Sequence record: PQ657784
Source: Escherichia phage EPIMRB01
Length of the DNA stretch: 64,000 nucleotides
Strand: one strand, 5' to 3'
The notes beneath the pieces are model-generated. The model saw only the letters and a list, made by a program, of their open reading frames with translations. It was not told where the DNA came from and did no database searches. Each line of letters opens with the position of its first letter. Position 1 is the stretch's first letter. The translations under genes were made by a program, and so were the position numbers. Of the stretch, positions 2,418 to 59,917 are shown in pieces.

Positions 2418-2447
2418 ATTATACCACATCCTTGTGGTAAAGTAAAC
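2418..2447 (-). promoter_or_regulatory. T4-type early promoter (GTTTAC-N18-TATAAT) upstream of rIIA.1
   Basis: minus strand reads GTTTAC TTTACCACAAGGATGTGG TATAAT; 32-nt core identical to the copy at 47253-47284. Confidence 0.55.
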
Positions 2448-6748: not shown

Positions 6749-7249
6749 CTAGCTTACACGAACATTAATCACTGCGCTGCGAGGAACTACAGAGTACTCT
6801 CCAGCATGAACTACATTAAGAAGTTCAACGCCATCTTCAATCCACTGGTCAGTTACCCAACCGCCAATCGGATTCGCGAATGGACGACGAATATAAACTG
6901 CCTTACACAACAAATCAGTCGGGTCTTCAATTTTTTCAACTGGTGTTACATACATAGAAACTAAATCCATATCAATATGGGATTTTTCTTGTTCTTCTTT
7001 TTCAATTTCTGTCAATAAATTGAAATCTTCTTCATAGATGATGAATGATGATACCCTTCCATAATAGTTTCTAATTTCCATGTACACTGTACCAATGAGA
7101 ATTCCGCTATTAACACTAATAATAGTAAAAGGATATCCGCCAGTTGTACCAAGAAGTTCCCAAAACTTGCTATCAGTCGTATTCGACATTGTCCGGAAAT
7201 CAATTTCAGATGGTTTTTTCATTTGATACGTAGTATTAATTTTAATCAT
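6749..7249 (-). CDS. MotB-like paralog
   Basis: 166-aa ORF; C-terminal TDQWIEDGVELLNVV motif homologous to 6178-6675. Confidence 0.5.
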   Translation of the reverse strand: MIKINTTYQMKKPSEIDFRTMSNTTDSKFWELLGTTGGYPFTIISVNSGILIGTVYMEIRNYYGRVSSFIIYEEDFNLLTEIEKEEQEKSHIDMDLVSMYVTPVEKIEDPTDLLCKAVYIRRPFANPIGGWVTDQWIEDGVELLNVVHAGEYSVVPRSAVINVRVS

Positions 7250-43170: not shown

Positions 43171-43617
43171 TTAAAACGCTCGGTCAGAAAAAGAAATTTG
43201 AGTTTCAAGCCATTCAATATATTCTGCCGCGGCTTGCATCAAATTTCCTTCATAACCATCGTTATTTTCTTGTGCAGCTAATTTAGCTAATGCATATGAA
43301 ATGCGTTCACCTTGAAAAGCGGCTTTAGGTTTATGAATAGCTTGATCAACTCGTTCTACGACTTCTTCAATTTCGCCATTTTCTACTGATTCAGTATTCC
43401 ACAAGCACCAATACGAAATTGGCTTATCGTAGATGTTAATAATCTTTCCATCAGAAAGTTCAATTTCAATAATTCCAGTATCAGGTTCTATATCATCTTC
43501 ACATTCTTTTGCAAGTTCACGAACTTTAAAGACAGTACCTGCACTAAGTTCCGGCCAGTAATTACATAGCCCTGTATCAACACGATTAATTCTAAACCAC
43601 TTATCTACTGTAATCAT
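43171..43617 (-). CDS. pin: Pin-like protein
   Basis: 148 aa from ATG at 43617 with GGAG SD; immediately after gene 49 as T4 pin; synteny only. Confidence 0.4.
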   Translation of the reverse strand: MITVDKWFRINRVDTGLCNYWPELSAGTVFKVRELAKECEDDIEPDTGIIEIELSDGKIINIYDKPISYWCLWNTESVENGEIEEVVERVDQAIHKPKAAFQGERISYALAKLAAQENNDGYEGNLMQAAAEYIEWLETQISFSDRAF

Positions 43618-43740: not shown

Positions 43741-44061
43741 TTATAGCGTAATCCATTCTCGTACTGTCTGAGTTACTACACGTTCATGGGGCTCGACTAG
43801 TTCAACAGTCGGAACTGCATAATACCAGTCAGAATGATAAGAACCTGACCGAGATTCATTTACAGCCACATGTACATTATGTTTTGGACTAAAGTAAACA
43901 CACTGACGATATTGACATTTACCATCTTGCACCCAGTCTTCTATTTCGACAGGTTTAAGATAATCGGAAAAATCGAAATCATAGTTTTCCGAAAATGCAT
44001 CATGGTCTTCAATGATTTCGCTCAGAACTGCATCAACATCTAATTTATTTTCAATAGTCAT
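43741..44061 (-). CDS. hypothetical protein
   Basis: 106-aa ORF. Confidence 0.45.
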   Translation of the reverse strand: MTIENKLDVDAVLSEIIEDHDAFSENYDFDFSDYLKPVEIEDWVQDGKCQYRQCVYFSPKHNVHVAVNESRSGSYHSDWYYAVPTVELVEPHERVVTQTVREWITL

Positions 44062-44721: not shown

Positions 44722-44964
44722 TTATTCCTTAATTCCTAGTACTTGTTTAAAAGTCTCGTCGTAATCAAGACTTTGACCCGTTTGTTCTTTATGTTTGTAT
44801 ATAATATCACTTACTTCTGATAGCATATTTTTATATGAACGAGTTAAAGCTGATTTAAGCACGCTGTATCTATCAGGAAATTTACCATGTTCATTATAAT
44901 AAGCTATTGCTAATTCACGGACTGCCTTTTCGGCAGTCTCCATATATTCTTTACGCTTTGTCAT
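44722..44964 (-). CDS. hypothetical protein
   Basis: 80 aa from ATG at 44964. Confidence 0.4.
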
Positions 44965-45247
44965 TTTCTTCTCGGTCAAATCGGTGTTTACAATGGCGAC
45001 ATTTATAACGAAGATTACTAGTATGCCAATGGACCAATTGCACCTGTTCAGTTCCACATTCAGGGCAATTAGGAACGTTTTTAGAAGCACGTTCGCGACG
45101 TTCAACCATAGCCATAATGGCATCCCAAGCCGGAGGTTTAAAATCTAAATCGTCAGTAACTAGCAGTCCTTTATCAAACCCAGCGCATGGAGTCCATTCA
45201 GGAAAATCTGAAGCTTCAGCAATATCTTCTAATAAACGCTTTTTCAT
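44951..45247 (-). CDS. hypothetical zinc-finger protein
   Basis: 98-aa ORF with CPECG...CRHCKHR. Confidence 0.45.
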
Positions 45248-46170
45248 TTTAGTACCTCAATAGCATTACGTAAACCATTTGCTTTGGCGGTTAAAGTCTT
45301 AATAACTTTAGTATGCTCTTCAATCTGTTTTTCAACTTCAATCAAACGGGCACTGAGATATTCGCGTTCTTCTTTCATAGTATCATTCCCATGATTGTGC
45401 TTTGGTGTAGGTTTAAATTTACTAGGGTCCTTTAACTTAATAACAACTTTAGTTTCAAACAGTGAAAGACCATAATTCGTATTATCATCAAAGGATTCAA
45501 CTACGTCCATTTTAGACAATAACGTACGAAGATTATAAGTCAAAGAACGAATCGTTTTATTATGTTTATTAGCTTCACATGGTTTCATATATGGAAGATT
45601 TTTATATATTTCATGTGGAGCACAAACAATAATTGACAATTCAAATGGTCCATTCTGTGATGATGGAATGAATTTAGCCGTAACCCAATCTTTTACATTT
45701 ACATTAATAGTACGGTCATCGCCATGACAAAACAGTCTACGAGAATGCTTAAAAAGCATATTCACATTATTATTGAATTCATGTGAAAACTCACTAGCAA
45801 ATTTTTCTTTACTATTTTTAGAAAACCATTCTTCTAAATAAGTTCTTTTCACGTCATTAATAATATTAAATGTAACAACACTAGCATTTGATACATTAGT
45901 CTCAATGTAGTTTGGATACATAAATTTTTTAACATTATTAACAGCTATCACAGAAGATAGTAATCGGGAACGTTTGAACCACTCTAGCAAAGAACCAAGA
46001 GAATGTGAATACGCATTTTGTGTATCTTTACAAATATGGTTTTCCCATCCAATATAGTCTAAAAAATCACGAAGAATATTATTGATTACTGCTCTATGTC
46101 CTATCTGATAATTACGATGTTTAGTAATAAGACTGTCAAAATAATCAATATAATGTTTACGAGTTTTCAT
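45244..46170 (-). CDS. hypothetical protein with C-terminal coiled coil (paralog A)
   Basis: 308-aa ORF; predicted C-terminal heptad-rich helix. Confidence 0.55.
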   Translation of the reverse strand: MKTRKHYIDYFDSLITKHRNYQIGHRAVINNILRDFLDYIGWENHICKDTQNAYSHSLGSLLEWFKRSRLLSSVIAVNNVKKFMYPNYIETNVSNASVVTFNIINDVKRTYLEEWFSKNSKEKFASEFSHEFNNNVNMLFKHSRRLFCHGDDRTINVNVKDWVTAKFIPSSQNGPFELSIIVCAPHEIYKNLPYMKPCEANKHNKTIRSLTYNLRTLLSKMDVVESFDDNTNYGLSLFETKVVIKLKDPSKFKPTPKHNHGNDTMKEEREYLSARLIEVEKQIEEHTKVIKTLTAKANGLRNAIEVLK

Positions 46171-46222
46171 GTTCTTCTCACTTGGTTAATGATTTATACT
46201 CCGAGCCATCCTTGGCTTTAAA

Positions 46223-47224
46223 TTACTTAATTAGCTGTAAAGCTTGTTCAAGACGATCCAGACGATTAACAGATTCTTCCCAAATCCTTTTAGCCTTCTC
46301 ATATTCTTTCTGCGCTTTATTAGAAATTTCTAGAACTTCTTTATAAGCTTTTTCTAGTGCAATAACTTCTGGACGAATTTCTATCGGTTCAGGCGAATCG
46401 TCAAGACATTCCATTAGTTCTTCAAGGGTAGTTTCTTCTTTAGGAGTATTCACAATTTCATCACATTTTTGTTGGTAAATTTCTTTATCAGTCGGTGAGT
46501 ACGTACGTTTCACTTCACGGAGGCTAATTATAATTTTATATCCTTCCCAACCACACATATTTTTGAAAGGATATGTATGAATACTTTTTACGGTTTCCAT
46601 ACAGCCCAAAGCCGCCTCTAATTGATAAGTTATAGTGCTAGCAATTGAGAAAAATTTATTAATATTCTTTTGGTTAGCGTTTGGTGTAAAAAATCCATAA
46701 TTCACAAAAATAGCTACTTTATTTTTATCAAGCTCATATTCTTTTACGATAATCATATCAGAAGCCAAAGGATGAATTTGACGATAATTGCCATAACATA
46801 ATTTAGAAGCTGATTTTAGAATTTGTCCTTTGAAAAGTCTGAAATTACTAATCCAACGACGAGTAAAAATATTCTCAGGGTCTTCTTTATTATTAAGATG
46901 ATAAGAATTAACATCACCGAACCAATTATATCCTACTACATCTTTAGTTCGTTTAATTTCTTTCCCAAATTTACCAAGAATATCTCTGTTAACTAAGTAT
47001 GAAAGAAGACGAGACCCTTTAAAGGTTTTCTTAATGTCATCTTTATCTGTACGACTAGAAATTTCACGAACTTCGTGAATAAATCTGCTGGAAGAAACAA
47101 TGCTTACATCAATATTATTGAGCCATTGATTGATAATAGAAAGAACACTATTCTGACTAGACTTAGGTTTAACTTTATCATCAATAACACTGTTGAATGA
47201 TTTGATATATTCGTTACGAGTCAT
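46223..47224 (-). CDS. hypothetical protein with C-terminal coiled coil (paralog B)
   Basis: 333 aa from ATG at 47224 with GAGGAG SD; track start 47254 lies inside the promoter -10 element; motif QILKSASKL shared with C. Confidence 0.55.
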   Translation of the reverse strand: MTRNEYIKSFNSVIDDKVKPKSSQNSVLSIINQWLNNIDVSIVSSSRFIHEVREISSRTDKDDIKKTFKGSRLLSYLVNRDILGKFGKEIKRTKDVVGYNWFGDVNSYHLNNKEDPENIFTRRWISNFRLFKGQILKSASKLCYGNYRQIHPLASDMIIVKEYELDKNKVAIFVNYGFFTPNANQKNINKFFSIASTITYQLEAALGCMETVKSIHTYPFKNMCGWEGYKIIISLREVKRTYSPTDKEIYQQKCDEIVNTPKEETTLEELMECLDDSPEPIEIRPEVIALEKAYKEVLEISNKAQKEYEKAKRIWEESVNRLDRLEQALQLIK

Positions 47225-47252
47225 ATTAATCTCCTCAGTAGAAAGTAAGAAC

Positions 47253-47282
47253 ATTATACCACATCCTTGTGGTAAAGTAAAC
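47253..47282 (-). promoter_or_regulatory. early promoter upstream of paralog B
   Basis: GTTTAC TTTACCACAAGGATGTGG TATAAT, identical to the rIIA.1 promoter. Confidence 0.55.
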
Positions 47283-48310
47283 TAGTTCAGTGCATTTAGT
47301 GCATTGTTCAGTTTAGAACGTTGCTTCGTGAGATTTTTGACTTTTTCTTGAGCTTTTTCTAGCATCTTTTCAGCTTCTAGCACTTCATTAGTTGCTTTAA
47401 CGAGTTCATCATCTACTGCCTTGATAGACTTCTCAATCGCATCTGCATGCCATTTTTCAACAGGTTTAAGACTCGGATTTTCAATAGGAAGAAAATTCAC
47501 TTTATTGAATTTCCATGCATCCTTATTACCTGAACTATACATCCAAAATTTAGGATCGTTTGATGAATAATTGGATAAATTTAAATTTAAGTTATCTTGC
47601 ACTTCCTGCTTTTTCTCTTGTGTGACTTCGTCCTTTCTCAAAAAATCGTATTTAAATGAAACGATCATATCAAGTTCATATGTTGTTGTGTCTAATTTAA
47701 ATCGTTCAAAACGAGGTAAAATCTTAGACTGAACAGCGGCAACAACATCCATATACTTAAATGCTTCTGTCAACTGCGATTTAAGGCATTCGCAAATTGA
47801 AAGAGAATTTTTTGTATTAGGTTTAAAGCTAATTCGTGCAGTTCTATTATTTTCTTTTAATGGTCTTACTTCCATCTGAAGAGTATAACCATCAAATTTC
47901 AGATTCTTTAAGTTAATATCAGAACCTTTTAATCGACTCGCAGTTGATAAAATTTGCTTTAATTGTCTACGGAACAGAGCAATAAATCTCCATTCAATAC
48001 GATAATGATTTGGATTGAAGAATCCAGATGATAAATCGACCTTACTTTGACCAACGCCTTGAACAAATAGAGGATTTTTATAATCAATAGTTTTACAGAA
48101 ATCGGTGAGCTGCTCACGGGCCGTCATTTGTGTAATATACCCTGCTTTACTAAAATTACGCACCCATTCACTGCTATTCGTATACTTAAAGTGATGAATA
48201 ACACGATTAACTTTATCAGGGTCTAAATTATTTTCACACAAAAATGTCATAACATCACGAGTATAGCTGGCATTACGAACCATATCTTCAATTTGAGAAC
48301 GAGTTTTCAT
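47282..48310 (-). CDS. hypothetical protein with C-terminal coiled coil (paralog C)
   Basis: 342-aa ORF; motif RQLKQILSTASRL. Confidence 0.55.
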   Translation of the reverse strand: MKTRSQIEDMVRNASYTRDVMTFLCENNLDPDKVNRVIHHFKYTNSSEWVRNFSKAGYITQMTAREQLTDFCKTIDYKNPLFVQGVGQSKVDLSSGFFNPNHYRIEWRFIALFRRQLKQILSTASRLKGSDINLKNLKFDGYTLQMEVRPLKENNRTARISFKPNTKNSLSICECLKSQLTEAFKYMDVVAAVQSKILPRFERFKLDTTTYELDMIVSFKYDFLRKDEVTQEKKQEVQDNLNLNLSNYSSNDPKFWMYSSGNKDAWKFNKVNFLPIENPSLKPVEKWHADAIEKSIKAVDDELVKATNEVLEAEKMLEKAQEKVKNLTKQRSKLNNALNALN

Positions 48311-48318
48311 GGTATTCC

Positions 48319-49206
48319 TTAAGATTTAAGTAAATCAACGATTTTAATTAACTTTTCACGCTCAGATTTAGCTTTACTACTCAATCCAGATAGTCTGAAA
48401 ATTTCATCGTCATATTGTTGAATAGAAATATTCAGCTCTTCAATTTGCTTATTAAAATAATCAATTTGTTCAGAATGTTTTTCGTTACTACGACCTGGTG
48501 CAGGTTTTGTAGGCAATTTAGTTGAACTGGATTCATCCGGGCGATAAATTAAAATACAACTTGAACCAATCGGACATTTAGCACCAGATGAATATTCTAA
48601 TGTTCCGGCTTCTTTTAAAACTTCAAAAGCTAAACAGAGATGATGCCCCATATTAACATAATCTGTAGAGCGAGCTCTGACGTAATAATCATCGCCGCGA
48701 ATACTAAATTTAAAGCATTTAAGGTCTTCTGTATTATTGGTCTTAAAAATCATTTGTTTATCTAGACCTTTAGCTAATCGAGCGCCTAATGCTAATAATC
48801 GTCGTTGATTTTCCCACAAATCTGCGATCATTTGATCGAATGATAATTTTGGCATTAGTCGACCATAAAGGTCATATCCTTTATTATAATTACGAAGGAT
48901 TTCACTCGCGTTAATACGAGACAATGCTCCAATTTTATTAAGGGCTTTCATAATGCGATTAGATAAACCCATTCCAGACCAGTTTGTTCGCTGCAAATGT
49001 TTTTCTAATCCAAATCCAATATCAACTTTAAACTTATCTAAAATTTCTGCATGAACATCTCTGTCAATAACATTCAAATCCAAAGTTGGGTTAAATCTAT
49101 GAAAAAATTTATCTGGCTCTCCACGACGAAGTACAGTCCATTCATTCAATTTTTTATTAACTAAAGATTTAATTACTGCATTGACATTATTAATTGCTAC
49201 TGACAT
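48319..49206 (-). CDS. hypothetical protein with C-terminal coiled coil (paralog D)
   Basis: 295 aa from ATG at 49206 with GAGGA SD. Confidence 0.5.
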   Translation of the reverse strand: MSVAINNVNAVIKSLVNKKLNEWTVLRRGEPDKFFHRFNPTLDLNVIDRDVHAEILDKFKVDIGFGLEKHLQRTNWSGMGLSNRIMKALNKIGALSRINASEILRNYNKGYDLYGRLMPKLSFDQMIADLWENQRRLLALGARLAKGLDKQMIFKTNNTEDLKCFKFSIRGDDYYVRARSTDYVNMGHHLCLAFEVLKEAGTLEYSSGAKCPIGSSCILIYRPDESSSTKLPTKPAPGRSNEKHSEQIDYFNKQIEELNISIQQYDDEIFRLSGLSSKAKSEREKLIKIVDLLKS

Positions 49207-49217
49207 ATTTTCCTCAC

Positions 49218-49622
49218 TCAATTTTCAATTTTACTAAATACGCAGAATATGATGGAAAAGACTATATAAGCACCGCACACAGATTGAACTAATACCATTC
49301 CAAAGAACCAGACAATATTATCAAACAGTGTCTGTTTTACGTCGAAAGGACGTAAACTTACAGTAATATTATCACCTTTTTCTATTGAAGAATACATCTC
49401 TGGAGAAATATATTCACTAAATCTATAACCGTCTTTGAGTTCATATACGGCAATAAACGATAAACTAGACCCCTTTCCTTGAGTTCCTGTAAGGGTATTA
49501 ACTATAGTAACATCATAATCTTTATAATGCATATAATCATTAATAGCATAATAACCATATGCAATTACTATACATAAACAACATATCAATAAATTCAATC
49601 TTTTAATTATCAACTGTTTCAT
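49218..49622 (-). CDS. hypothetical membrane protein
   Basis: 134-aa ORF with N- and C-terminal TM segments. Confidence 0.5.
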   Translation of the reverse strand: MKQLIIKRLNLLICCLCIVIAYGYYAINDYMHYKDYDVTIVNTLTGTQGKGSSLSFIAVYELKDGYRFSEYISPEMYSSIEKGDNITVSLRPFDVKQTLFDNIVWFFGMVLVQSVCGAYIVFSIIFCVFSKIEN

Positions 49623-49677
49623 AATAATCTCAATTAAAAGGGCTTAGAACCATTATACCATCCTTGGTATAAAGCGG

Positions 49678-50205
49678 TTATGCGAGTACCGTCTTTAACC
49701 GTTCTTCAAATTTCCGAAGAGTGTTCTGGCGTTCAGCTCTTTGCTTTTTGTAAGTTTCAATACGCTCTGAAATGAGAGTGTATCGTTCATTTACTGATTC
49801 TTTCATAAAATCAGGAATTTCACGAGAAGCTTTAATTTCATCAAATTTATCAATAACAGCTTGCTCTTCAGCAATTAAGTTATCATACATCAAAATATCT
49901 TTCTTGATGAACTCAATATCTTCTTGAGTTACACGAGATAATTTAGATGCTTTATCCTTTTTGTACTGTTCGTTAGTATCACGAGACCAGTGTAATGTAC
50001 GATTTTTATTCGTATTCTTATAAATTTCTACAATACCAATCTCATCAATAATAACGATCCAATTCCAACGGGATTTGTAAATTTGTCCTCCATCAACCGC
50101 GATTTCACCACCGATTGAGACATCATTAAAGAACTTGCTTTGAGCTTCAGATTTAAATTTACCATCATTGTAGTTTACTAAGTTGAAAATATCTTTAGCA
50201 TTCAT
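49678..50205 (-). CDS. hypothetical protein
   Basis: 175 aa from ATG at 50205 with GGAGG SD behind cassette promoter. Confidence 0.5.
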   Translation of the reverse strand: MNAKDIFNLVNYNDGKFKSEAQSKFFNDVSIGGEIAVDGGQIYKSRWNWIVIIDEIGIVEIYKNTNKNRTLHWSRDTNEQYKKDKASKLSRVTQEDIEFIKKDILMYDNLIAEEQAVIDKFDEIKASREIPDFMKESVNERYTLISERIETYKKQRAERQNTLRKFEERLKTVLA

Positions 50206-50233
50206 TTTCTGTTCCTCCGTAGTTGATAGTTGT

Positions 50234-50263
50234 ATAGTATCACAGAGGAACAGTCTTGTAAAC
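50234..50263 (-). promoter_or_regulatory. early promoter of cassette type
   Basis: GTTTAC-N18-TACTAT then ACAACTATCAACT leader and GGAGG SD. Confidence 0.55.
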
Positions 50264-50265
50264 AA

Positions 50266-50580
50266 CTAAAAGAAACTTCTTTCACAATTTTTTCCACTGA
50301 ACCACGCGCTCACTGCTTTCTTAGTCTCAGGAGCAGTGTTATCCATAAACCATTCAAAGGCAGCCTTTTTATGATTCTGGAGGGCTTCTCGGGCTTTAAT
50401 CTGCTCACGGTCTATTAACACTAACATATGAGCCTTTCTTGTCACCAAGGGCTTCTTATGATTTTTTGAATACTCCCAATCATTTGTCCATCGCATCGTT
50501 GTTGCGAACTGAAATACTGCTTCTTTAATTTTAGTTTCGTAAATTTCACGAGCCTTTGAGTATAACATCATTACCTCCAT
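50266..50580 (-). CDS. hypothetical protein
   Basis: 104-aa ORF. Confidence 0.45.
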   Translation of the reverse strand: MEVMMLYSKAREIYETKIKEAVFQFATTMRWTNDWEYSKNHKKPLVTRKAHMLVLIDREQIKAREALQNHKKAAFEWFMDNTAPETKKAVSAWFSGKNCERSFF

Positions 50581-50669: not shown

Positions 50670-51638
50670 TTATTTCAGAAGAGTAACCTCAGCGATTTCT
50701 TCCCAACCGTTTTTGTCGGTCATAATAAAGTCAGCAAGATAAAGAGCAGTACGCAGTGAAACATTGCGTAAACGATTAACATTGACTTTCATCCATGATA
50801 ATGCTTTATAAGTTTCTTCATCAGAAAGACCGCGCTTTTGCATCATGTCAGTTGAAAGAATAACATCTTCAACCCTGACCATAATTTCTTCATTAGTGTG
50901 AACACCTAAATCTAAATAAACTGAGCGGGACACTAATGCTTGTAAATGTGGAGCAAGTTTAGTACCACGGTCTAATTCGCGGTCAATGTCAACGTTTGTG
51001 ATAAAAACAATCGTTCCTTTAAATTCAAACTCACGCTCAATGCCTTTTTCTTCTAAGTAAGAAGATGCAGTGCTCCAGCAGACTTTACGGGTCTCTCCAG
51101 TGTCCAGAGCAGCTTTCAGAAGATTAAGAATGTCCATATCAGAGAAAACATCCACATCATCAATCAAAAGGACAGAATTCTCTTCACGATTATTCCAAAG
51201 CTGCTCATAAAGACCAATACCAGAGATTTTACCGTTAATGCTTTTATACTCAATGTATCCAATATCATTTGCTTTATTTAAAGCTTTATCTAAAGAATAC
51301 GTTTTACCAATACCTGCTGCACCAGAGATAATTAATGAACGAATGTTTCCGTTAATAATACCATTCGTCATCATTCCCATAACATTAAATCTTTTATTAA
51401 TGCGGGTTTTCATATCTTCATATGATTCTTTAACTTCTTCAACTTTTACACCGTCATATGAAATGTCTGATTTGTAAACCCAAACACCGCGACGTTTACC
51501 GTCAATTTCAACAAAAACTTTACCATCTCCTTGTGCATCTACCGGAGCATTATCAGGGAACCACTCACCTAAGAGTTCAAAAGTTCCAGAGATTTCTTTG
51601 CCAAAGTAGATACCCTTATTGATAGTTACAGTTTTCAT
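50670..51638 (-). CDS. predicted AAA+ / P-loop ATPase
   Basis: 322 aa from ATG at 51638; Walker A SGAAGIGKT and Walker B VLLIDDVD; own early promoter and cassette leader. Confidence 0.6.
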   Translation of the reverse strand: MKTVTINKGIYFGKEISGTFELLGEWFPDNAPVDAQGDGKVFVEIDGKRRGVWVYKSDISYDGVKVEEVKESYEDMKTRINKRFNVMGMMTNGIINGNIRSLIISGAAGIGKTYSLDKALNKANDIGYIEYKSINGKISGIGLYEQLWNNREENSVLLIDDVDVFSDMDILNLLKAALDTGETRKVCWSTASSYLEEKGIEREFEFKGTIVFITNVDIDRELDRGTKLAPHLQALVSRSVYLDLGVHTNEEIMVRVEDVILSTDMMQKRGLSDEETYKALSWMKVNVNRLRNVSLRTALYLADFIMTDKNGWEEIAEVTLLK

Positions 51639-51682
51639 TTTATTCTCCAAATCCGTATCAGTTGATAGTTGTATAGTACCAT
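51632..51682. repeat. 51-bp promoter-leader cassette repeat, copy 2
   Basis: identical to 24947-24997. Confidence 0.8.
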
Positions 51683-51702
51683 AAAGCTTTATGCTTGTAA
51701 AC
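51673..51702 (-). promoter_or_regulatory. early promoter of cassette type upstream of ATPase gene
   Basis: GTTTAC-N18-TACTAT; leader identical over 51 nt to copy at 24947-24997. Confidence 0.55.
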
Positions 51703-51732
51703 CGTTCTGTGAAAAATTTTTGAAATAAAAAA

Positions 51733-51752
51733 AGGGAGCCCGAAGGCTCCCT
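51733..51752 (-). terminator. rho-independent terminator downstream of NTase gene
   Basis: AGGGAGCC-UUCG-GGCUCCCU then UUUUUUUAUUUC. Confidence 0.6.
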
Positions 51753-51753
51753 A

Positions 51754-52767
51754 TCATTTATAATAACTTCGGTGGTTTTCAAGATAGACCTTCTCAAGGA
51801 AGTCATCCCAGAAACTCATATCTACTTTTTGCTGCATACCGTTCTTAGAAGCTTCAGTAGATGCTGCTTCTACTTGATCTACCACATCTTCCAAAAACTC
51901 TTGAACTATTTTAAATGGATGTTTACCCAACTTCACGTCGAGAATAAATGGAGCATCTTGGAGTGGATAAACCAAGTCGCCAGTTTTGTAAATTTCCAAT
52001 AGTTGGAGTCCACCACGACAAGCATGACTTAGTGCTTTCCAATCAATACCTTCATTAGCTTCGGCTTTACGAGCACGTTCACCATATTCAGCATCTAATT
52101 TGTTCAGTGACTGCTTAAGCTCAATAAGAGAAAGCGTTGTCTGATATTTACGACCCAGCACTGTATAGAACGTTTGTGGACCTGTTTTCTCATGATTATG
52201 GAACACCCATTCACAGAATTCGTTTTCTGGAAGACGATGCTTAATATCTTCAATTTTAGTGCGACGTTGTCCTTGTGTTCCATCTTCTCGGTAGACATTC
52301 CGTTGATCAGGAATTTGATTAATTACTTTCAACACATCACGTAATGCAGCTAGACGAGAACCTTTAACACCATATTTAGAGGCTTGCTTGCGGACATATC
52401 CTAAATAGGATTTCATGTTAGTCGTATAAAAACGAGAACGGTTGTCTTGAATAAACTTCCACACATCAGGCAAATCAGATTTAACCACTAGTTCAGGTGG
52501 AGTGTGAAGCATATCCAATGCTACAGTTTCACCATCTGCTGCTAATTTAAAGAAATACTTAAGACTATACAATTCGTGGTCAATATCATCTTTAGTGTTT
52601 TTAGATGATGTGTTGTTGGTATTTTTACTCATGTGCTCTTTGACATTTCCGATAAGAATATCGCGAGCAGGAGGAACAAAGATTTCTTTAAAATCTACAT
52701 CAGATTCTGGGGTAGAAGTTCCATAAAGATGACTACCGAAATAGCTTTTCATTACTGTTTTCATCAT
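51754..52767 (-). CDS. predicted Pol-beta-superfamily nucleotidyltransferase-fold protein
   Basis: 337-aa ORF; N-terminal GS-x9-DVD motif (GSHLYGTSTPESDVD) plus downstream acidic residue (ALDMLH); terminator hairpin right after stop. Confidence 0.55.
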   Translation of the reverse strand: MMKTVMKSYFGSHLYGTSTPESDVDFKEIFVPPARDILIGNVKEHMSKNTNNTSSKNTKDDIDHELYSLKYFFKLAADGETVALDMLHTPPELVVKSDLPDVWKFIQDNRSRFYTTNMKSYLGYVRKQASKYGVKGSRLAALRDVLKVINQIPDQRNVYREDGTQGQRRTKIEDIKHRLPENEFCEWVFHNHEKTGPQTFYTVLGRKYQTTLSLIELKQSLNKLDAEYGERARKAEANEGIDWKALSHACRGGLQLLEIYKTGDLVYPLQDAPFILDVKLGKHPFKIVQEFLEDVVDQVEAASTEASKNGMQQKVDMSFWDDFLEKVYLENHRSYYK

Positions 52768-59887: not shown

Positions 59888-59917
59888 ATTATACCACAGT
59901 CAAGAGGAAAAGTAAAC
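59888..59917 (-). promoter_or_regulatory. early promoter upstream of regB
   Basis: GTTTAC-N18-TATAAT. Confidence 0.55.

Follow-up and report, generated by a model that had tools for sequence, protein, structure and literature searches.

Four genes of similar size stand one behind another near the thioredoxin gene nrdC of Escherichia phage EPIMRB01, and the locus raises a simple question: are they copies of one gene or unrelated genes that have come to look alike, and what might they do for the phage? They lie in a 64,000-nucleotide stretch of sequence record PQ657784 (hereafter the window, at its full length), in which an initial annotation made from the sequence alone had described, at 45244-49221, a tandem array of four diverged paralogs and had proposed for them a role in host interaction or anti-defence. 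Four consecutive open reading frames (ORFs) of 300-343 aa, all on the minus strand, are indeed present, as called at 45244-46170 (A), 46223-47254 (B), 47282-48310 (C) and 48319-49221 (D), with two starts that need correcting. ATG 47254 is not the real start of B because it lies inside the -10 box of a promoter, and we place the start at ATG 47224 (333 aa), which is preceded by GAGGAG; the start of D moves from 49221 to ATG 49206 (295 aa), the same start as in homologues of D. The window belongs to a Tequatrovirus, its DNA at 45000-50300 matching Escherichia phage AUBRB02 at 100% identity and, at 97%, phage PP01, in whose annotation A, B, C and D are nrdC.3, nrdC.4, nrdC.5 and nrdC.6; they are transcribed in the order D, C, B, A (coordinates and identities to the T4 reference proteins in Table 1). 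It is in our estimate rather likely that the four genes are tandem-duplicated, diverged copies of one ancestral gene, most likely forming an early counter-defence family.

Pairwise BLASTP gave hints of relatedness only for A-B (E 2e-4) and A-C (E 0.007) and nothing for D against the other three, and word-indexed protein searches returned only orthologues of B, D and C. Pairwise comparison being too weak alone, profiles were built. By hhalign, A and B align along their full length at 97.5% probability (E 5e-12), and at 97.6% without the C-terminal helix; judged from these alignments the two are certainly paralogues. B and C align at 89.7% (E 1.8e-6), and a merged nrdC.3 and nrdC.4 profile matches C at 93.7% (E 1.9e-7); when the C-terminal helix is left out, both links to C fall to 66-73% (66% for B-C). 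We grade the paralogy of C to A and B, on these profile links, as probable to strong.

The place of D is less direct. Aligned by hhalign with A, B and C themselves, D gives probabilities below 4% (E 0.02-0.09), and its link depends on merged profiles, on predicted structures and on a further set of proteins, PM2_092 and those of Kanagawavirus, which constitute one sequence family (tblastn E 1e-13 to 2e-15; genera Mosugukvirus and Kanagawavirus) that we call family X. Against the family X profile, D scores 96.7% (E 4.7e-10) and C 82-89%, and merged profiles join A+B+C to X at 93.5% (E 2.4e-7) and D+X to A+B+C at 89.4% (E 2.1e-6). Alternatively, nrdC.3, nrdC.4 and nrdC.5 would be the only paralogues, with nrdC.6 and family X look-alikes that have converged in size, helix-rich composition and coiled coil. 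The poor direct alignments of D would fit this alternative, as would the C-X comparison, in which most of the link comes from the C-terminal helix and the cores alone give 3%; the three groups also sit in separate Pfam and PHROG families, and Foldseek with D did not list nrdC.3, nor with B nrdC.6. However, X-D and ABC-X both exceed 93%, and cores stripped of the C-terminal helix still give 79.5% for ABC-X (E 1.5e-5), 52% for DX-ABC (E 1.4e-4) and 75% for D-X. Column-shuffled profiles score 13-16 (maximum 23), against 46-74 observed. A hidden Markov model (HMM) built from family X alone puts the four genes ahead of all other six-frame ORFs of the window (145 in total), with D at 2e-8 and C at 2.6e-5 followed by A and B; it finds no further member among them, the next in rank being the coiled-coil protein gp46 (E 0.28), with nrdC.8 likewise at an E of at least 0.28. 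As profile controls, nrdC.7, nrdC.8, nrdC.9 and nrdC.10 gave E values of at least 0.04.

Because the profile links largely hold under the shuffle, neighbour and helix-removal controls, we take all four genes as one superfamily. That D belongs to it, by way of family X, the merged profiles and the predicted structures, seems very likely, and convergence correspondingly unlikely. The paralogy first proposed from the sequence is thus supported for all four, with certainty falling from A-B to C and from C to D. Each gene is orthologous to a T4 gene, as four unrelated genes might also be, yet those T4 genes are themselves mutually related and their similarity extends beyond the coiled coil.

Existing databases draw the boundaries more narrowly. 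The gathering threshold of DUF7235 (PF23882; 30 bits) is passed by C only, over its full length (E 1.6e-127), while A reaches 15.6 bits through a weak match of its C-terminal helix to the C-terminal end of the family and B and D give no match, which makes these three remote relatives rather than members. PHROG 1435/PF26897, the NrdC.3-NrdC.4 family, matches A and B at full length and leaves C and D unmatched, PF26897 being carried also by homologues of B; PHROG 2257/PF26899, the NrdC.6 family, matches D only and is carried by its homologues. An exhaustive HMMER search with the B profile of 1.84e9 cluster representatives found seven proteins, nrdC.3 among them at E 1.4e-6, and neither nrdC.5 nor nrdC.6; by this measure the nrdC.4 family is tiny and restricted to T4-like phages. 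The NrdC.3-6 superfamily proposed here is one in which profile-profile links join all the member families, the direct D-A, D-B and D-C comparisons not being significant. The three groups are joined in none of these databases, nor in any paper found.

Predicted structures point the same way. AlphaFold2 models of B and D (predicted local distance difference test, pLDDT, 81.6 and 78) have a common order of elements, namely N-terminal helices, a helix pair, a beta-beta-alpha-beta-beta unit and terminal helices, and the helix pair (B 119-142, D 123-144) coincides with the central motif that had been noted in B, C and D. That motif is found in all three, has an equivalent in A, and is almost invariant within the nrdC.6 family; in the alignment of the D+X with the A+B+C profile it forms, together with the extreme C-terminus (R-x-K-L-x-x-A-L-x-x-L-K), the block of highest confidence. 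The coiled coil, too, is borne out in all four proteins, their C-terminal 49 residues showing heptad a/d hydrophobic periodicity beyond that of shuffles (p <= 0.011) and the models a 48-residue terminal helix in B and a hairpin in D. The neighbouring nrdC.8 was considered as a fifth member and rejected: it ends in a helix, but has no profile similarity and no significant heptad signal in its helix-rich C-terminal end (p 0.26).

Searched with Foldseek against BFVD, the B and D models share eight neighbours (E 1e-8 to 5e-2), all of them uncharacterised proteins of T4-like phages (IME523, PM2, fHyAci03, Acj9, Acj61, Cronus, fHe-Yen9-01 and PS2); the TM-scores (template modelling scores) are modest (0.3-0.5) and the root mean square deviations large. 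Four of these shared targets were placed in their genomes, three of them (PM2_092, the IME523 gene and Acj61p121) within the nrdC-nrdC.11 region. In PM2 (PM2_092) and in Kanagawavirus (IME523, PEi20 and relatives) a single copy stands immediately upstream of nrdC.2, where nrdC.3 is found in the window; Acj61 p120 and p121 are adjacent and near nrdC (p121 about 2.5 kb away), p121 being a hit for both models and p120 for that of B alone; and fHe-Yen9-01 gp111, matched by both models, is a single gene beside a homologue of nrdC.10. Sequence profiles of Acj61p120, Acj61p121 and fHe-Yen9-01 gp111 show no significant similarity to any of the families (best, gp111 against C, E 0.002), and we class the three as putative relatives at the level of predicted structure only. 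For nrdC.6, the same order of secondary structure, the motif in register, the eight structural neighbours held in common and the same locus all argue against convergence.

The locus itself offers a comparison across phages. In the nine non-Tequatrovirus Tevenvirinae contigs sampled (L006-L015) the gene order is nrdC.8-D-C-B-nrdC.2, with intact orthologues of B, C and D in every one; A, which was not found at these loci, is an extra copy confined to Tequatrovirus and inserted between B and nrdC.2. Across T4-like genomes the number of copies runs from one (PM2 and Kanagawavirus; fHe-Yen9-01) through two (Acj61) to four, and the superfamily keeps its position between nrdC.2 and nrdC.8/nrdC.10 in the window, L002-L015, Acj61, fHe-Yen9-01, PM2 and Kanagawavirus. 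Divergence is rapid: compared with other genera, B keeps 42-51% identity, D 41-50% and C 22-28%, against 68-87% for nrdC, gene 49, nrdC.8 and nrdC.10 in the same comparison.

The initial annotation had spoken of diversifying selection, and on this point a caveat stands. Pairwise gene-wide ratios of nonsynonymous to synonymous substitution (dN/dS) are 0.14-0.30 for A, about 0.2 for B, 0.15 for C and 0.08-0.16 for D; among the neighbours they are 0.00-0.09 for nrdC, nrdC.1, nrdC.8, nrdC.10 and gene 49, and 0.15-0.28 for nrdC.9, nrdC.7 and pin. These ratios indicate that all four genes are under purifying selection, relaxed relative to their best-conserved neighbours; at 2-10 times the values of neighbouring genes but far below 1, they support fast divergence under relaxed constraint but do not demonstrate positive selection. 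One could then regard every copy other than nrdC.5 as a decaying duplicate with no selected function, a harmless filler of a 'hyperplastic region'. The genes are non-essential and the region has been lost in laboratory evolution, their dN/dS is raised relative to neighbours, and frameshifted, fused and internally duplicated variants exist (T4 nrdC.6, P0224 and P0064, below). Decay is nevertheless hard to square with purifying selection on all four, with the retention of intact B, C and D in nine of nine non-Tequatrovirus contigs despite low identity, with strongly conserved motifs and invariant columns in the nrdC.6 and nrdC.4 families, or with the 463 of 728 matching phage records in which at least 80% of the 5.3-kb array query is covered in one place, and we consider it highly improbable.

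In Tequatrovirus, nrdC.3 occurs as two alleles about 60% identical, in which the N-terminal 60 residues are almost the same and the middle is divergent, a pattern that suggests mosaic replacement. The adjacent nrdC.2 (44951-45247; 64-67% amino-acid identity) likewise has sharply divergent alleles, with synonymous divergence (dS) of about 1 for both genes (window against L002, L003, L005 and L008), and the flanking genes are 97-100% identical between the same phages. The nrdC.2 and nrdC.3 alleles switch independently between phages, which looks like mosaic cassette exchange. Two rearranged copies were also seen. Protein P0224, from a public assembly, is a 299-aa chimera in which residues 146-274 of nrdC.5 are joined to the equivalent of residues 134-308 of A; its nrdC.3 half is an allele 57% identical to A, the join lies at a short NKVN / NNVN microhomology out of register between the paralogues, and the fusion amounts to a deletion of nrdC.4. 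P0064, the nrdC.6 homologue of Shigella phage Sf25, is 378 aa long, with an internal tandem duplication of about 83 residues (equivalent to D residues 181-263) that could be real or an assembly artefact.

Within the proteins, change is unevenly distributed. The extreme C-terminal helix is among the best-conserved parts of B and D across genera and, more weakly, of C, and the hairpin of D is kept across genera; the other conserved block is 81-160 in D (including the central motif), 121-140 in C and 61-80 in B (upstream of the motif). For C the top three 20-residue blocks are 121-140 (0.40) and 281-300 and 321-340 (0.44). Variation is greatest in the first 80 residues of D, at the N-terminus of C and, in B and D, across the beta-sandwich region.

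A helix so well kept might instead mean that the four proteins assemble through their C-terminal helices into a single hetero-oligomeric early complex and act jointly on one host process (shut-off, nucleotide or NAD+ metabolism). The conservation of this helix and of its L-x-x-A-L-x-x-L-K ending, both between paralogues and across genera, would be expected of such subunits, as would the adjacency of the genes with their probable co-transcription from the promoter-like sites described below, and the long solitary helix in the monomer model of B implies the need for a partner. Yet a plasmid that supplies nrdC.5 alone is enough for a T4 deletion clone to plate again on Dsr1, many genera have one, two or three copies, and the two nrdC.3 alleles, about 60% identical, occur with no matching changes in the other paralogues. 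Nor does the T4 reference nrdC.6 have the helix: the gene (NC_000866 52066-52893; L025 9067-9894) is annotated as 275 aa, its reading frame departing after ...NKQIEEL to end in IFLFNNMMMKFSDYLD, a break that is either a laboratory-strain frameshift or a sequencing error. Taken together, a joint complex appears improbable.

The copy of the rIIA.1 early promoter that had been noticed at gene B is exact over 32 nt: the promoter at 47253-47282 (minus strand) is identical to that at 2418-2447 (minus strand), between gene 39 and rIIA.1. There are 8 instances of the early-promoter pattern in the window, where 0.19 would be expected, and early-type promoter-like sites also lie upstream of nrdC.8 and nrdC.10. 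Transcription of D and C would start at the nrdC.8 upstream site, that of B and A at the duplicated promoter. The two 32-nt copies are in direct orientation and 44.8 kb apart; both have an 18-nt hairpin, TACCACAAGGATGTGGTA, between their -35 and -10 boxes, and a third promoter at 59888-59917 has the same GTTTACTTT...TGTGGTATAAT frame. The repeat was considered as a deletion hot spot and rejected, as a deletion between the copies would presumably not be viable, the 44.8-kb interval including, by reference to other T4-type genomes, the DNA polymerase and clamp-loader genes.

Function is tied to the array through one member. A T4 clone without nrdC.5 is reported not to plate on ECOR17 or on MG1655 carrying ECOR17 dsr1, and nrdC.5 alone, from a plasmid, restored plating on Dsr1 (PMC9391042; Srikant, Guegler and Laub 2022, eLife); the same source counts nrdC.5 among the early genes. 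Dsr1 is a SIR2 NADase; its tetratricopeptide-repeat (TPR) sensor domain, which Avs7 shares, reportedly has the phage major capsid protein as its trigger (PMC12803255, 2026 preprint). The anti-defence reading of the initial annotation therefore has direct support for a single member, T4 nrdC.5, 96% identical to C, and extends to nrdC.3, nrdC.4 and nrdC.6 as candidate immune inhibitors because they are remote paralogues of it. Just downstream of the array are pin (43171-43617), 49.2 (43741-44061) and nrdC.1 (44722-44964). The product of pin is a Lon inhibitor. Of the other two, both published inhibitors that flank the array, 49.2 inhibits OLD (published for T6; PMC13096335) and nrdC.1 is reported to inhibit Septu in T4 (HIDEN-SEQ preprint). 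Since the array adjoins these three genes, we regard it as part of a longer counter-defence island around nrdC. Like the dmd-tifA-adfA 'anti-TA (toxin-antitoxin) island', pin, 49.2 and nrdC.1 are described as non-essential early genes of variable regions, each neutralising one host defence, and the array directly adjoins two of them, the anti-OLD and anti-Septu genes. It differs in that it consists of four adjacent copies, of about 300 aa each, of one gene, whereas the accounts of dmd-tifA-adfA, pin, 49.2 and nrdC.1, as far as they go, report no mutual relatedness.

On the reading that we favour, an ancestral gene beside nrdC.2 and nrdC in T4-like phages would have been duplicated in tandem to give one to four copies, depending on genus. 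All copies would retain a scaffold composed of a helical N-terminal part, the helix pair with the central motif, a beta-beta-alpha-beta-beta sandwich and a C-terminal heptad helix ending L-x-x-A-L-x-x-L-K. The scaffold and the terminal helix, which probably drives oligomerisation, would stay fixed while the N-terminal part and the sandwich surfaces diverge fast and set the target, so that each early-made paralogue would attach to its own host immune target and silence it ahead of the appearance of late structural proteins; nrdC.5 would be the case for Dsr1, a SIR2 NADase with a capsid-triggered TPR sensor. We infer that the other three, nrdC.3, nrdC.4 and nrdC.6, likewise inhibit immune proteins, that direct binding is, by analogy, the means of inhibition, and that the variable surfaces determine the target.

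The nearest known protein is T4 NrdC.5 itself (DUF7235), of which C is the orthologue and A, B and D would be remote homologues with the same architecture and locus; the latter three fall below the DUF7235 threshold, belong to other Pfam and PHROG families, and anti-Dsr1 activity is reported for NrdC.5 only. A working model for its action on Dsr1 might be DSAD1, which reportedly acts by binding the sensor domain of DSR2. In both cases a phage protein confronts a SIR2 NADase that detects a late structural protein through a C-terminal sensor; the DSR2 sirtuin defence is described as being triggered by the tail tube protein and inhibited by DSAD1 of phage SPbeta (PMC10973363, PMC11087589). The likeness is a functional analogy from the literature, DSAD1 differing from NrdC.5 in phage lineage, host and target protein.

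It is tempting to speculate further that the superfamily is an expandable sensor-blocker platform, in which the central domain, resembling a tail-terminator fold, mimics small virion proteins and plugs the TPR-type sensors of Dsr1- and Avs-like proteins, while the coiled coil multimerises the decoy; these sensors would normally envelop capsid, connector or tail-terminator proteins, and there would be one paralogue per sensor clade. The idea would explain the one to four copies and their extreme divergence, though we think it improbable in this specific form. Identity with tail terminator or completion proteins (lambda gpU-like alpha/beta sandwich) was considered and rejected: Z never reaches 8, sequence identity is 3-14%, and RNA polymerase alpha/Rpb11-like and nitroreductase folds score equally. 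Tail terminators also differ in context and form, as the array genes are early, in the nrdC-mobD region behind early promoters and outside the late structural module, and their products have extra N-terminal helices and a coiled coil.

Several points weigh against the counter-defence reading, in addition to the indirect link of D and the modest structural scores given above. Gene-wide dN/dS below 0.3 leaves an arms race undemonstrated. From the T4 reference nrdC.6, which has no conserved coiled-coil helix because of its shifted frame, it follows that the laboratory strain, at least, can do without either the helix or the gene. Direct binding is only an analogy, because the mechanism of nrdC.5 is unpublished; PADLOC, NCBIfam and PDB sequence searches gave no match beyond spurious coiled-coil or designed-repeat ones; and the literature searched on nrdC.3, nrdC.4 and nrdC.6 held almost nothing beyond a genome note.

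What is already established is the principle of accessory anti-defence genes within T4 variable regions. To this we add no new principle but the superfamily link, which joins three Pfam/PHROG families currently kept apart, the single-copy relatives in other genera, and a prediction for three uncharacterised genes of the best-studied phage, nrdC.3, nrdC.4 and nrdC.6, as concrete candidate counter-defence genes beside nrdC.5, which belongs to the small number of phage countermeasures known against sirtuin (Dsr1) immunity. A conserved scaffold separable from variable surfaces may guide truncation and domain-swap work, and one to four copies at the same locus form a natural series in which the inhibitor repertoire can be set against the host defence repertoire.

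Table 1. Features of the nrdC.3-nrdC.6 array in the window (starts of B and D as corrected)
Feature	Coordinates	Strand	Evidence or remark
Gene A, nrdC.3 orthologue, 308 aa	45244..46170	-	95.5% to T4 NrdC.3; PHROG 1435 E 5.6e-100
Central helical motif of A, about residues 126-147, SEFSHEFNNNVNMLFKHSRRLF	45730..45795	-	aligned to the B motif in the A-B profile alignment
C-terminal heptad helix of A, residues 260-308, ends LRNAIEVLK	45247..45393	-	heptad test p < 0.001
Gene B, nrdC.4 orthologue, 333 aa	46223..47224	-	89.5% to T4 NrdC.4; PHROG 1435 E 2.6e-163
Central motif of B, residues 122-142, RRWISNFRLFKGQILKSASKL	46799..46861	-	model helices 119-130 and 132-142
C-terminal helix of B, residues 285-333, ends LEQALQLIK	46226..46372	-	one 48-residue helix in AlphaFold2 model; heptad p 0.011
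Early promoter upstream of nrdC.4, GTTTACTTTACCACAAGGATGTGGTATAAT	47253..47282	-	GTTTAC, 18 nt, TATAAT, upstream TG
Gene C, nrdC.5 orthologue, 342 aa	47282..48310	-	PF23882 (DUF7235) 425.7 bits; 96.2% to T4 NrdC.5
Central motif of C, residues 104-127, RIEWRFIALFRRQLKQILSTASRL	47930..48001	-	located in sequence
C-terminal heptad helix of C, residues 294-342, ends LNNALNALN	47285..47431	-	a/d hydrophobic fraction 0.93, p < 0.001
Gene D, nrdC.6 orthologue, 295 aa; most distant family member	48319..49206	-	PHROG 2257 E 3.6e-150; 95.8% to T4 NrdC.6 over 259 aa
Central motif of D, residues 129-148, DLWENQRRLLALGARLAKGL	48763..48822	-	columns N133-A145 invariant; model helices 123-132, 134-144
C-terminal helical hairpin of D, residues 247-295, ends LIKIVDLLKS	48322..48468	-	helices 242-271 and 277-294; heptad p < 0.001

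Some minor features of the locus and its surroundings deserve mention. All three non-Tequatrovirus loci examined for ORFs (L006, L010 and L014, at about 6840-7160) have a conserved 71-aa ORF between their nrdC.6 and nrdC.5 homologues; the window does not have it, and nrdC.6 and nrdC.5 are there 8 bp apart. Acj61 has a second tandem pair, p076 and p077 (L016 9028-11322), paralogues of 372 aa annotated as 'putative copy', which profile comparison found unrelated to the nrdC.3-6 family. Upstream of the array, nrdC.10 (50670-51806; real start at about 51638) encodes a P-loop AAA-type ATPase with weak, sub-threshold matches to nSTAND3 and nSTAND_NTPase5, both STAND NTPase models; the gene is kept at 71-79% identity in five further Tevenvirinae contigs of the sample as well as in Tegunavirus fHe-Yen9-01, and annotations of PM2 and PEi20 include it too. 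Upstream of nrdC.10, at 51733-51752, lies a GC-rich hairpin with a perfect 8-bp stem (AGGGAGCC-CGAA-GGCTCCCT); a T-run comes after it on the minus strand, and the element resembles an intrinsic terminator between nrdC.11 and nrdC.10.

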